Shown: piece by piece, positions 2,376 to 6,457 of the stretch | How the letters are laid out: each line of letters opens with the position of its first letter | How positions within the stretch are numbered: the stretch's first letter is position 1 | Sequence record: PP418985.1 | DNA length: 64,000 nt | Reading direction: 5' to 3' (one strand) | Source: Escherichia phage UPWr_E1 | The notes under the pieces: model-generated | The model's input: only the letters and a program-made list of their open reading frames with translations | Told to the model about the DNA's origin: nothing | Database searches by the model: none | Position numbers and translations under genes: made by a program

Positions 2376-2561
2376 ATGGTTAAAGTTGATTTGTCAGACG
2401 GTGCAAAATGGATAGTTGACAGAATCCCAGATAAGGATTACAATTATTTCCGTGCCGAATTAAACAATGCAATTCTGCGAGTTATGGAGAAATACGGGTA
2501 TGATCGTGAAGTATCTAACTCGTTTGGCGAATATGTTGTTGTGAGAGTGGAGAGAACTTAA
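2376..2561 (+). CDS. Hypothetical protein, 61 aa
   Basis: ORF with RBS agagga upstream of ATG; no recognisable motif. Confidence 0.45.
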   Translation: MVKVDLSDGAKWIVDRIPDKDYNYFRAELNNAILRVMEKYGYDREVSNSFGEYVVVRVERT

Positions 2562-2563
2562 TT

Positions 2564-3511
2564 ATGACGTATAACCCGTTTACAAAAACTACCGCTACAC
2601 TTAATGATTTCTTCGATGATCCAGAAGATAAACTGCCGGAAGGTGTGCATTTGATTGATATGTCGCAGCTTATGATTGCTACTATCTCGCATACCTTTAA
2701 ACCGGAAGACCCTATTAATGAAGGCATGATTCGTCATCTTATCCTTGACACCATGCGTTATAATATGACAAAATTCAAAGAGCAATACCCAATTACGGTA
2801 CTTGCCTTTGATTCAAGTAAAGGTTACTGGCGACGTGATATCGCACCTTACTATAAACGCAACCGTAAGGAAAAACGAGACGCAGATCCGCGTGATTGGG
2901 AGATGATCTTTGCTGCGATCAATAAGATCACCGAAGAGTTTAAAGAGAACATGCCTTATCACGTTATTAAGGTTGACAAAGTTGAAGCAGATGATATAAT
3001 CGCTGTATTAACTAAAAAGTTTTCTGTAGAAGGTCGCCAGGTGCTGATCAACTCCGGCGATGGTGACTACACACAGTTGCACAAATACAAAAACGTGAAA
3101 CAGTGGGCGCCAGTACAGAAAGCATGGAAGAAATGCAAATATGGTAGCCCTTACAAAGACCTTATGGTAAAATGTGTTAAGGGTGACGCAAAAGACGGTG
3201 TAGCTTCTGTCAAATGTCGTAGTGATTTCATTATCTCACGACTGGAAGGGGAACGAGCTAAACCAATTGCGACCAAATGGTTAGAGCAAATTTTCGATGC
3301 CGAAGATCCAAAGTCTTTGATGACAGAGGAAGAAGCACGACGCTTTGACGAAAACCGCGAACTTATTGATTTCGATTACATCCCAGATGATATTCAGAAT
3401 CAAATTCTGGAGTCATGGGAAAAATCTAAACCAGCACCACGCGGTAAAATTTATAACTATTTTGTAACAAATGCGTTAGTTAAAATGTTGCAGAAAATTG
3501 GTGAGTTCTAA
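2564..3511 (+). CDS. rnh: RNase H / 5'-3' flap exonuclease
   Basis: 315 aa; T4 Rnh-like size and motifs; position next to gene 34 as in T4. Confidence 0.8.
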   Translation: MTYNPFTKTTATLNDFFDDPEDKLPEGVHLIDMSQLMIATISHTFKPEDPINEGMIRHLILDTMRYNMTKFKEQYPITVLAFDSSKGYWRRDIAPYYKRNRKEKRDADPRDWEMIFAAINKITEEFKENMPYHVIKVDKVEADDIIAVLTKKFSVEGRQVLINSGDGDYTQLHKYKNVKQWAPVQKAWKKCKYGSPYKDLMVKCVKGDAKDGVASVKCRSDFIISRLEGERAKPIATKWLEQIFDAEDPKSLMTEEEARRFDENRELIDFDYIPDDIQNQILESWEKSKPAPRGKIYNYFVTNALVKMLQKIGEF

Positions 3512-3521
3512 GGGTTGACAT

Positions 3522-4121
3522 ATGAAAGAACTTGAATTAAAATACTATGCCCATTCGCAGGATGGTGTAGAAACAATCTGTGATTTGTGGGTGGCAATGT
3601 ATGACGGTTATAATATCGTAGATCGAGATAACATATTAAAACACGAATTTTATTATGATACCGAAGATCATGCGCTACGTCAAAAAGGAATTTATGCACG
3701 ACTTGACTGTAGAAAATCAGAGATCATGGTCAAAATGGGTGATAATGAATCTGGACTATTCAACCGAGAGGAAATTACATTTTCAAATTGGGATGAGTTC
3801 GTCCATTTTATTGATAGTCTAGGGGTAAACTCCGACTATATCACTACAATAATGCAAGTAATGACATATCGCAAGTCATTGACTCTAGATATGGATTGTG
3901 GTATAGTGGAAATGTGCAAAGACACTTTCTATTATGGCAAAGTAGGCGAAGGAATTGGCGACACTGCTCATTATGAACTTGAGTTCGAGTTAAAATCAGG
4001 TGATGAAAAAGCACTTGACATTATCCGAGAAATGATGCTAGAATATATCGGCGATGATTTACGTCCTAGCGAAATCTCAAAAGCTGAACGCGGTTTTCAA
4101 TTAATGACGAAAGAGGGTTAA
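3522..4121 (+). CDS. CYTH-like protein (triphosphate tunnel metalloenzyme / class IV adenylate cyclase-like)
   Basis: 199 aa; N-terminal ExExK (MKELELKYY) and C-terminal acidic strand YELEFELK typical of CYTH fold; assignment by motif only. Confidence 0.45.
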   Translation: MKELELKYYAHSQDGVETICDLWVAMYDGYNIVDRDNILKHEFYYDTEDHALRQKGIYARLDCRKSEIMVKMGDNESGLFNREEITFSNWDEFVHFIDSLGVNSDYITTIMQVMTYRKSLTLDMDCGIVEMCKDTFYYGKVGEGIGDTAHYELEFELKSGDEKALDIIREMMLEYIGDDLRPSEISKAERGFQLMTKEG

Positions 4122-4125
4122 TATT

Positions 4126-4401
4126 ATGACTGAACAGAAAAAAGAAAAAGTAGTATTCGATGAAAATGTACACGGAAATACCCTGGCACAACTGATTAAA
4201 GAAGCCAGCGATCAGAAAACCATTCAAGAAGCATATGGCGATAAGATCAAAGAGATCAAACAGCGTGCTAAAGAAGAATTAGGCGTAGATGGTAAAATGT
4301 GGGGCATTCTGTTTAAACTGTATCACCAGCAACAGCGCGAAACCTTCGAAGCAGAACGCGACGAAGCGGTAGAACTCTATGATCGGGTGTTCAATGCTTA
4401 A
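4126..4401 (+). CDS. dsbA: Small protein at the T4 dsbA position (dsDNA-binding late transcription factor-like)
   Basis: 91 aa, size and position between rnh and gene 33/59 as in T4; sequence identity not verified. Confidence 0.4.
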   Translation: MTEQKKEKVVFDENVHGNTLAQLIKEASDQKTIQEAYGDKIKEIKQRAKEELGVDGKMWGILFKLYHQQQRETFEAERDEAVELYDRVFNA

Positions 4402-4648
4402 TGAACATGCGGTAAAAGCCGCGAACAAAACAGCAAACGGTCTTGCAATCGAAAAAATGGTTGTTGAAGAGGGATTGACTTATCTTGAAGCAACAACGCA
4501 GTTTGTAGAGGAAAACTCTATAGAATATGGTCACTATCAGAAATATATTCCGGTGTCCATTATTGACAAGATCACACAAGAATGTATAGTAAATAGAACG
4601 CTCAGGAAGGGAGTGATCGACGAACCGACCAACACTCTCGATATTTAA
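4379..4648 (+). CDS. 33: Small protein at the T4 gene 33 position (late transcription accessory-like)
   Basis: 89 aa (or 84 aa from the ATG at 4394); synteny only. Confidence 0.35.
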   Translation: MIGCSMLNEHAVKAANKTANGLAIEKMVVEEGLTYLEATTQFVEENSIEYGHYQKYIPVSIIDKITQECIVNRTLRKGVIDEPTNTLDI

Positions 4649-4657
4649 GGGGTATGT

Positions 4658-5338
4658 ATGATCAGAAACCGTCTTCCTCCAGATCCAGATATGCGAATTA
4701 ATGCTAAATCTGTGTATATGTTATATTGCATGATGAAAGCTCATATGAACGGGCGTTATGATTGCGTAAAATATAATTGGAGGATGCGGTTATCTGATGC
4801 CGCATTCAATAAACGCAGAGATAAGTATTATTTCGCGAAATTAGCGGAAAAGTACAATCTAAGAGAATTATACTTCCTATTCCTAAGCAATCTGGTAGCT
4901 AATACCGATGCATGGGTAGGTGAAATCACTGATGTTGACGCATACGGATTTTACATGGAGTATATCGGTAAGATCACTGATGCGGCAACAAGATTTGACG
5001 ACGATATCAAAAGTCTGGTATACTTCTCAGAGAAACGCGGGGTTACTCTTAAAGAGCTAATTACATATAATCCCGCAACCGAAACTAGCGGTATCTTTAA
5101 ACTGCTGCAAAATCGGATTATATCGTTTGAGTCGTTTATGTTGTTAGATAGCTTTCTAAATATAATCGACGAACACGACAAGGTAGCCAAAGACTTGATT
5201 TGGCAAACTTATAGTGTTAAAATGAAGGCGTACAAGAAACTACTTGTTATTGACGCCGCAAAAGCAAGAGCATTATTTGTTAAAGTAGTTAAAGAGTGTA
5301 AAGAAATATCTCAATTAAAAGCCGAAACAAATAGTTGA
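4658..5338 (+). CDS. 59: gp59 helicase loader
   Basis: 226 aa; strong resemblance to T4 gp59 (KSVY.LY.M.K.HMNG.YD..KYNW.MR.SDAA..KRRDKY.F.KL.EKY); RBS aagggg. Confidence 0.85.
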   Translation: MIRNRLPPDPDMRINAKSVYMLYCMMKAHMNGRYDCVKYNWRMRLSDAAFNKRRDKYYFAKLAEKYNLRELYFLFLSNLVANTDAWVGEITDVDAYGFYMEYIGKITDAATRFDDDIKSLVYFSEKRGVTLKELITYNPATETSGIFKLLQNRIISFESFMLLDSFLNIIDEHDKVAKDLIWQTYSVKMKAYKKLLVIDAAKARALFVKVVKECKEISQLKAETNS

Positions 5339-5362
5339 CAAGTAAATTTAAATCTGTATAAT
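5335..5362 (+). promoter_or_regulatory. Sigma70-type early promoter upstream of gene 32
   Basis: TTGACA, 16-nt spacer, TATAAT; followed by AT-rich leader. Confidence 0.5.
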
Positions 5363-5398
5363 AGTCTAGTAAATTAATCAAAAGAAGGAATAGTGAAT

Positions 5399-6367
5399 AT
5401 GTTTAAACGCCAAGATTCTTCCAAACTGCAAGCTCAACTGGCCGCACTGAAAGGTGGCAACGGTTTCTCCAAAGAAGATCCGAAAGAGTGGAAGATTAAG
5501 ACTGATGCAGCAGGTAACGGTGAAGCCCTGATTCGCTTCCTGCCGTCTAAAACAGAAGACGGTCTGCCGATTGTGAAACTGGTAAACCATTCCTTCAAAG
5601 TTAATGGTAAATGGTATTGGGAAAACTGCTCAAGCACCCACGGTGATTTTGATTCTTGCCCTGTGTGCAAATATATTAACGAAAAAGATCTGTACAATAC
5701 CGATAAAACCGAATGGCAACTGATTAAGCGTAAGGCATCTTACTACGCAAATATTCTGGTACTGAAAGATCCTCAAGCACCGGAAAATGAAGGTAAAGTA
5801 TTCAAATTCCGCTTCGGTCAGAAAATTTATGATAAGATCGTTGCGATGGTGAACGTGAATACCGATATGGGCGAAGTTCCGGTCGATGTAACTTGTGTGT
5901 TCTCCGGTGCTAACTTCCTCCTGAAAGCTAAGAAGGTTGATAAACACCAGAACTATGATGATTCTCGTTTCATGCAGCAATCACAGCTTCCGAAAATTGA
6001 AGACGAAGCATATCAGAAATATCTGATGGAAAACATGGTTGATCTGGGCGAGATTGTAGCGCCTAGCCAGTTTAAACCGTTCGATGAACTGGAAACCAAA
6101 TTTAAGAAAACTATGGGCGTTTCTATGGTAGCTGGTGCTGCGGCTTCCAGTGCTGCGGCAGCGATTAACAGCCAGCTTGACGATTTTGACGCTGCTTTAA
6201 ATGCATTCGATTCTGGTATTACCGCAGCTAGCACTGTAGTTGGTATTAACGCAGCTAACACGGCGTCAGATTCTTCCGCTGATGATCTGATGGCATCTCT
6301 GGACCTGGGTGGCGGTACTTCCTCCGCTTCTGATCTGGATGACCTGGACTCTCTGTTAGCGATGTAA
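5399..6367 (+). CDS. 32: gp32 single-stranded DNA-binding protein
   Basis: Start MFKRQDSS at the ATG 6 nt inside track ORF 5393; LIRFLPSK, zinc-binding [11 protein letters not shown], acidic S/D-rich C-terminus; T4 gp32-like. Confidence 0.9.
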
Positions 6368-6378
6368 TGAATTTTACA

Positions 6379-6402
6379 GCCTCCCTTCGGGGAGGCTTTT
6401 TT
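6379..6402 (+). terminator. Rho-independent terminator (UUCG tetraloop hairpin plus T-run)
   Basis: gcctccc-ttcg-gggaggc followed by tttttt. Confidence 0.7.
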
Positions 6403-6429: not shown

Positions 6430-6457
6430 TTGACATGTTGGCGAGGTAATGTATAAT
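6430..6457 (+). promoter_or_regulatory. Early promoter
   Basis: TTGACA-16-TATAAT then conserved leader catcgaaac and RBS. Confidence 0.55.

Follow-up and report, generated by a model that had tools for sequence, protein, structure and literature searches.

Characterized triphosphate tunnel enzymes

Escherichia coli YgiF, a CYTH-CHAD inorganic triphosphatase (PDB 5a60/5a61), is a triphosphate tunnel metalloenzyme (TTM) in which the importance of the metal ligands, Arg-56 and Lys-69 was demonstrated by structures and mutagenesis. In AtTTM3, whose catalytic Arg is Arg-52, the second Arg of the same motif is dispensable for inorganic triphosphatase (PPPase) activity. The mammalian 25-kDa thiamine triphosphatase (ThTPase) stacks the thiazole of its substrate on the Trp of strand beta-3, and class IV adenylate cyclases (AC-IV) are recognized by three hallmarks: HFxxxxExExK, replacement of the first beta-3 Arg by V/C/L, and ExA on beta-8 (Vogt 2021). 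The TTM fold is also encoded by viruses, as in Aeh1ORF004c, the jumbo-phage CYTH triphosphatases, and the Cet1-type RNA triphosphatases of large DNA viruses. A review of jumbo phages described CYTH triphosphatases as scattered in phages and suggested that CYTH and MazG proteins degrade nucleoside triphosphates (NTPs) (Iyer et al. 2021). The present analysis concerns a gene with this fold at positions 3522-4121 (+ strand) of a 64,000-nucleotide stretch of Escherichia phage UPWr_E1 (PP418985.1; the window).

The gene product is a member of the CYTH/TTM superfamily. It is probably best described as a phage-specific TTM phosphohydrolase variant nearest to the YgiF tunnel domain, with Y-x-R-x-D as its predicted substrate motif. 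Judged from residue conservation and by analogy with characterized relatives, the probability that it is a catalytically competent single-domain TTM acting as a phosphohydrolase, and not as a cyclase, is roughly 0.7.

The CYTH domain assignment itself has been known since 2006. The Pfam table of Nolan (2006) contains the entry "RB49ORF244c, CYTH domain, E=0.0026", which is almost certainly this gene because RB49 has a single match and the numbering is one off the RefSeq locus tag. The RB49 RefSeq record carries the note "similar to ... ygiF" for RB49p245, and the comparison of phi1 with RB49 (Arbiol 2010) does not mention this open reading frame (ORF). The present result is an annotation refinement and not a discovery; the details that appear to be new are a tunnel signature and a recombining cassette.

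Gene product and fold

The ORF begins with ATG and encodes 199 aa followed by a stop codon; it is the orthologue of RB49p245 and phi1 ORF245. The N-terminus, MKELELKYY (E3-x-E5-x-K7), was read from the ORF as given in a preliminary description of the sequence, and it cannot be extended because an in-frame TGA lies at 3516-3518, two codons 5' of the ATG. The same description had placed a YELEFELK strand at the C-terminus. The strand is present, at residues 151-158, which is 41 residues short of the C-terminus. The ORF is not a chance one, given its Pfam CYTH match, its conservation in all 58 Krischvirus records and a ratio of nonsynonymous to synonymous substitution rates (dN/dS) of 0.13-0.32.

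The CYTH-like call of the preliminary description was supported by the profile and structure checks that it had proposed, and neither of the outcomes that it had named as refuting (lack of CYTH profile support together with a predicted fold that has no tunnel) was obtained. The protein matched Pfam CYTH (PF01928) above the curated threshold and across the whole domain (E=5.3e-8; 33.3 bits against a gathering score of 23.2; profile positions 1-178 of 179). A family profile aligned with a set of 21 canonical CYTH proteins at an hhalign probability of 99.8% (E=5e-29). An AlphaFold2 model built from a 19-sequence alignment (mean predicted local distance difference test score 92.4; predicted template modelling score 0.86) consisted of an eight-stranded antiparallel barrel of long beta-strands with a C-terminal plug helix (residues 187-196). 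The top Foldseek matches in the PDB were all TTMs, the best being YgiF (E=6.4e-13; template modelling score 0.76), and by every method the closest solved structure was the YgiF tunnel domain with bound tripolyphosphate.

CYTH was the sole domain found in the Pfam scan, and the protein ends at residue 199, just past the plug helix, without a CHAD domain. The Pfam mRNA_triPase profile (PF02940, Cet1-like RNA triphosphatase) gave no match. The NCBIfam search of the protein gave one sub-threshold chance match only, and the PHROGs family, phrog_14893, is in the function-unknown class. A PDB match to the TriTu immunity protein 7zhm (E=0.043) was judged to be chance and was gone when the family profile was used. 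Giant-virus capping enzymes were weak structural matches in BFVD.

Catalytic residues and the remodelled tunnel

Residues were counted in 44 members of the phage clade and in 135-140 other (cellular) CYTH proteins aligned with them. The ExExK codons (E3-L-E5-L-K7; 3528-3542, +) would supply metal-2 ligands and a phosphate-binding Lys, by the role of Glu-4 and Glu-6 in YgiF, and the motif was invariant in 44/44 clade members and 140/140 other proteins. The acidic beta-8 strand (Y151-E-L-E-F-E-L-K158; 3972-3995, +) contains the putative metal-1 ligand E154 and the putative metal-2 ligand E156. E152, E154 and E156 align with YgiF E158, E160 and E162, and both E154 and E156 were invariant in all aligned CYTH proteins. 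The SKxERG codons (S186-K-A-E-R-G191; 4077-4094, +) mark the start of the C-terminal plug helix, and S186, K187, R190 and G191 are common to 87-99% of the other CYTH proteins.

All residues conserved in at least 87% of the 140 other CYTH proteins were kept in every allele class of the phage gene: E3, E5, K7, Y44, D46, R60, K71, R82, E84, R117, E130, D134, E152, E154, E156, K187, and R190. In the alignment with YgiF, E154 corresponds to E160; E3, E5 and E156 to E4, E6 and E162; R60 to the catalytic Arg-56; and K71 to Lys-69.

The beta-3 motif (Y58-A-R60-L-D62; 3693-3707, +) was placed in register by spacing, MAFFT, and hhalign. In 132/135 other CYTH proteins the first, catalytic Arg lies 14 residues after the invariant beta-2 Asp, as R60 does after D46; the spacing analysis spans ~179 CYTH proteins. 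MAFFT and hhalign likewise matched R60 to the catalytic Arg, Y58 to the 'W' position of ThTPase and D62 to the second Arg. Within the clade, Y58 was found in 41/44 members, R60 in 44/44, and D62 in 43/44 (Asn in the remaining one). A HMMER pairwise alignment with YgiF had Tyr58 replacing the catalytic Arg, which was rejected as a register error of two residues. In phmmer and hmmsearch comparisons with YgiF (residues 41-71) a 2-residue indel was put before beta-3 and not in the beta-3/beta-4 hairpin. The catalytic Arg was mis-assigned in pairwise alignments because of this misplaced indel, and only the multi-sequence spacing exposed it.

The phage clade has a tunnel signature that appears to be new, with Y-x-R-x-D in place of RxR and other remodelled residues. 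The second beta-3 Arg is Arg in 131/135 other CYTH proteins and Asp in 43/44 clade members. Two residues ahead of the catalytic Arg, 122/135 other CYTH proteins have A/S/G/T and 41/44 phage members have Tyr. Other clade-specific tunnel-facing strand residues are Y9, K40, E42, F136, and H150; among the other CYTH proteins the F136 position is Gly in 76% and the H150 position is Ile in 58%. Y9, Y58, F136, and H150 stand in for small or aliphatic residues, and E42 is on the same adjacent strand as K40. K40 co-occurs with D62 in every clade member, lies on a neighbouring strand with the same inward parity, and may relocate the lost positive charge.

The characterized relatives differ from the phage protein. 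YgiF, at ~22% identity, is 433 aa long with a CHAD domain, whereas the phage protein is 199 aa without one; the phage protein has D62 for the second Arg, Tyr for Gly at the preceding tunnel position, and clade-specific K40, E42, Y9, F136, and H150. NeuTTM, CthTTM, SaTTM, and BH2851, none of which is phage-encoded, have small-x-R-x-R on beta-3 where the phage clade has Y-x-R-x-D. ThTPase is an animal protein of ~15% identity and contains W-x-R-x-R with both Args. Against the ThTPase motif written as W/Y-x-R-x-R, Y58-A-R60-L-D62 has the aromatic residue and the first Arg but lacks the second. The two phage members that diverge most, P0044 and P0045, have Val or Ile at the 'W' position, so aromatic stacking may not be the conserved feature of the phage clade. 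Aeh1ORF004c and the jumbo-phage and Cet1-type proteins were not detectable by tblastn at E<=1e-5, and their genomic position differs.

Distribution of the gene

Megablast retrieved 58 public genomes of Krischvirus (RB49/Phi1-like, Straboviridae) that were 95-97% identical over this region, and the CYTH gene was present once in 58/58 records. It was labelled "hypothetical protein" in most of these, "adenylate cyclase" in three, and "inorganic triphosphatase" in two. By tblastn at E<=1e-5 the protein was found in no phage outside Krischvirus. In BFVD there was no close viral structural relative outside Krischvirus, the next viral match having E=1e-8 and 16% identity.

The statement of the preliminary description that T4 has no gene here holds for the T4-like phages compared: rnh is directly followed by dsbA in T2 (T4's genus), Aeromonas phage 25, Salmonella phage S16, and Klebsiella phage KpnM6E1. 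As these phages have no intervening gene, gene order marks the CYTH gene as an insertion of the RB49-like lineage alone.

A search of 5.8 billion clustered proteins recovered 43 relatives of 185-206 aa, except for one 130-aa fragment. An exhaustive hidden Markov model search of 1.84 billion representatives recovered only three clusters with E at or below about 1e-30 and six with E<=1e-10; beyond these six, the matches were weak and came from generic CYTH and CYTH-CHAD proteins. The divergent members P0042, P0043, P0044, and P0045 (58%, 48%, 36%, and ~30% identity) were all encoded immediately upstream of dsbA-gp33, with rnh upstream where the contig reached that far. The next match, P0046, had a canonical RxR and a cellular, archaeal-looking context. 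The clade is therefore phage-only and positionally fixed. The P0046 gene (L011/L012, 4797-6606) directly follows a gene of the phosphoribulokinase/uridine-kinase family (PF00485) on its archaeal-looking contig, and PF00485 with CYTH is the domain pair fused in plant TTM1/2.

A variable cassette within the gene

The middle ~430 bp of the CYTH gene was diverged while the gene ends and the neighbouring genes were 96-100% identical to Skers and L007. Sliding identity (45 nt) against these two fell from 1.00 at ~3516 to 0.36-0.6 over 3558-3962 and returned to 1.00 at ~3992. The cassette (codons ~9-153; 3545-3980, +) has its breakpoints inside the gene, at ~3530-3558 and ~3965-3992, within the DNA for the ExExK and ELEFELK motifs. 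Against Skers, codons 11-148 were 53% identical in nucleotides and 42% in amino acids, with saturated synonymous divergence; codons 1-10 and 149-199 were 94-97% identical in nucleotides and the flanking genes 96-99.6%. RB49 and JK32 had the same pattern in milder form, and JK32 was a mosaic inside the cassette. In total, at least five or six allele classes were present, with anciently diverged alleles exchanged by recombination. In more distant contigs the flanking proteins were 77-81% identical and the CYTH protein 36-48%. Foreign base composition was rejected as a feature of the cassette, its GC content of 0.34-0.40 not being distinctive against 0.36-0.45 in the flanks.

Pairwise whole-gene dN/dS was 0.13-0.32 for the CYTH gene and 0-0.17 for its neighbours, which indicates purifying but relaxed selection on the CYTH gene. 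Positive selection was rejected, as these values gave no average signal of it. Across eight allele classes of the cassette, 37% of the tunnel-facing strand positions were invariant compared with 0% of the outward-facing positions (Mann-Whitney p=1.4e-6). The T4-type recombination system needs less than 50 bp of homology (Arbiol 2010, discussion). Most simply read, the gene encodes an accessory enzyme that is weakly constrained and keeps its active site, with T4-type recombination shuffling its ancient alleles. The cassette is a clean natural example of recombination swapping most of an enzyme with the active site kept and, as far as can be told, an intragenic recombining cassette of this kind is new.

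In G2494 (L017, 601-1196; MK327935) a 1-bp deletion at the Ala59/Arg60 codons frameshifts the CYTH gene, which is annotated there as two ORFs. The deletion could be a natural knockout or else an error of sequencing. The 130-aa protein P0041 and BFVD entry A0A482GBZ4 resemble the downstream fragment of this split gene.

Predicted activity and alternative explanations

From the retained catalytic residues, two-metal hydrolysis of a terminal phosphate is most likely the chemistry of the phage protein. If the protein works as YgiF, AtTTM3 and ThTPase do, a substrate carrying a triphosphate would bind in the eight-stranded barrel on K7, R60, K71, R82, R117, K187, and R190. One Mg2+/Mn2+ ion would link E154 with the triphosphate, and another, coordinated by E3, E5, and E156, would activate water for attack on the terminal phosphate; R60 would polarize the beta-gamma bridge. 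The fold and the residue conservation are observed; the chemistry is drawn from the homologues. The loss of the second Arg is no argument against catalysis, because that residue is dispensable in AtTTM3, and it suggests a different substrate or entrance geometry. Because the tunnel is remodelled (Asp62, K40, E42, Y9, Y58, F136, and H150), the preferred substrate may differ from the plain inorganic triphosphate of YgiF. The heaviest weight, still short of even odds, was tentatively given to an organic triphosphate (NTP or deoxynucleoside triphosphate (dNTP), thiamine triphosphate, pppGpp, 5'-ppp RNA or a signalling nucleotide), a little less to inorganic tri- or short polyphosphate, and the rest to other substrates. 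The function is probably an accessory, dispensable metabolic or host-takeover one.

If the chemistry is as predicted, this protein would be among the few TTMs fixed in a well-studied phage lineage, where it lies amid replication genes, and its altered substrate pocket would be without counterpart among characterized TTMs. The identity of the substrate could reveal which host or phage triphosphate metabolite matters in T4-like infection. Knowing the substrate would likewise set right the contradictory "adenylate cyclase" and "inorganic triphosphatase" labels that are spreading in phage records.

Several points weigh against a catalytic phosphohydrolase. Similarity to characterized TTMs was low (22-23% identity to YgiF; PDB profile E=0.003). 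The acidic D62 in place of a near-universal Arg possibly means lower triphosphate affinity or a different reaction. Closure of the tunnel, the proposed proximity of K40 to D62 and the nature of the aromatic pocket are inferred from strand parity only. The gene would be non-essential for propagation if the G2494 frameshift is real, and the promoters that point to its early expression (below) are consensus matches only. Literature searches on phage CYTH/TTM function and on Krischvirus found no functional study of any member; the mention of a triphosphatase in the NARP3 paper was unrelated.

A sub-case of the phosphohydrolase reading is a plain inorganic tri/polyphosphatase that would be redundant with host YgiF and recycle inorganic triphosphate or short polyphosphate to phosphate and pyrophosphate. 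The closest structure by every method is the tripolyphosphate-bound YgiF tunnel domain, the two-metal site and the catalytic Arg are complete, and two GenBank records already carry that name. This sub-case is nevertheless doubtful: the host has YgiF already and the phage protein is without CHAD; the second phosphate-binding Arg is Asp; Tyr, Phe, and His stand where PPPases have Ala/Ser/Gly/Ile; and an aromatic residue occupies the position at which ThTPase stacks an organic substrate.

A counter-defence or host-takeover enzyme, stripping the terminal phosphate from a 5'-triphosphorylated immune signal, an alarmone or an RNA 5' end, with the cassette as the trace of an arms race, was considered improbable. 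The clade is phage-only and always in the same genomic slot, its substrate-lining residues are remodelled relative to the cellular CYTH proteins, and the gene lies in the early-transcribed orientation. The gene middle is by far the most diverged part of a near-identical region, with alleles swapped by recombination. At least one isolate can do without the gene, provided that the frameshift is real, as is typical for accessory genes. However, dN/dS was well under 1, with no average signal of positive selection, and neutral drift of a weakly constrained accessory enzyme together with T4-type recombination gives the same divergent surface and fixed active site. No candidate target was identified, no defence-related PADLOC model matched (E<=10), and literature searches found no paper tying CYTH/TTM proteins to anti-defence. 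The arms-race reading of the cassette is possible but unsupported. Interference with host nucleotide-based immune signalling, which the preliminary description had raised as speculation, stays of low probability because the PADLOC and literature searches gave no link between it and the protein. It is similarly a long shot that the Krischvirus-lineage TTM would be a specialized early enzyme for one triphosphorylated nucleotide (an immune or alarmone signal, a non-canonical dNTP or a host RNA 5' end), which would make it a new TTM substrate class with a variable exterior that escapes host factors.

A non-catalytic triphosphate- or nucleotide-binding protein, acting as a sponge or regulator with the fold kept and the chemistry lost, is very improbable. 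The loss of the second Arg and the bulky tunnel residues could impair turnover, and phage sponges for nucleotide signals are common. Yet alleles with as little as 36% identity all retain the metal ligands and the catalytic Arg, a pattern not easily accounted for unless the protein is catalytic, and known sponges have unrelated folds.

Least credible is a class IV (CyaB-type) adenylate or nucleotide cyclase that would produce cAMP or some other cyclic nucleotide within infected cells, which was rejected on all three AC-IV motif tests (HF is impossible, with only M-K before E3 and an in-frame TGA upstream; the first beta-3 Arg is kept, as R60 in 44/44, and is not V/C/L; the second Glu of ExE is kept, E154-F-E156 being invariant, and is not Ala) and because AC-IV structures rank well under YgiF, BH2851, and ThTPase in structure comparison. 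Set against CyaB and YpAC-IV, the phage protein, without HF and with both the first Arg and the second Glu of ExE, is not a member of their class. As all three discriminators of Vogt (2021) fail, some GenBank records are probably mistaken in their "adenylate cyclase" label; according to Kohn (2012), many bacterial CYTH proteins are mis-annotated as cyclases for historical reasons.

Neighbouring genes and expression signals

The gene lies between rnh and a dsbA-like gene, as had been stated in the preliminary description. Its surroundings are replication and late-transcription genes, and its orientation is that of early transcription. The upstream neighbour, rnh (RNase H / 5'-3' exonuclease; 2564-3511, +), was assigned by orthologue annotation and by Pfam 5_3_exonuc_N/RNaseH_C in homologues, and the downstream neighbour, dsbA (dsDNA-binding late-transcription protein; 4126-4401, +), by annotation and by Pfam Phage_DsbA in homologues. 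The CYTH gene is separated by 10 bp from the rnh stop and by 4 bp from the dsbA homologue, which is followed by gp33, gp59, and gp32. A putative Shine-Dalgarno sequence read from the DNA, AAGGG (3510-3514, +), lies 7 nt before the ATG and overlaps the rnh stop TAA (3509-3511).

Early, pre-replicative expression of the CYTH gene is likely, as predicted from the sigma-70-like promoters on the + strand and the lack of a late motif on that strand nearby. Nolan (2006) described the RB49 early promoters as sigma-70-like with G at -33. Between 1800 and 6600 there were 32 sigma-70-like matches, almost all on the + strand, compared with 14.5+-3.8 in shuffles. Perfect TTGACA-16-TATAAT sites were found on the + strand at 2973-3000, 5335-5362, and 6430-6457. 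The first of these (12/12 consensus, with TG) lies inside rnh, ~520 nt upstream, and is the candidate early promoter of the CYTH gene. The second lies ahead of gene 32, at the place of an early promoter in the RB49 annotation. The consensus scan gave a further candidate (4015-4044, +; 11/12, TG-extended) upstream of dsbA, within the CYTH gene's conserved 3' end. The late-promoter motif TATAAATA was absent from the + strand near the CYTH gene. It occurred at 2330-2337 on the - strand, upstream of the divergent tail-fibre gene 34 homologue, which is consistent with T4-like early/late strand organization.

Within 2400-5500 nothing in Rfam was near threshold. A strong terminator-like hairpin follows gene 32 at 6378-6397. 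A second, smaller variable patch was found in the 3' part of rnh (3351-3426), where identity to Skers, JK32, and L007 was 0.60-0.8 over ~75 bp, while RB49 and Phi1 remained at 0.96-1.00. Between gp59 and gp32, Skers has an HNH homing endonuclease gene (L002, 4802-5398) that is absent in the window, RB49, Phi1, and JK32.
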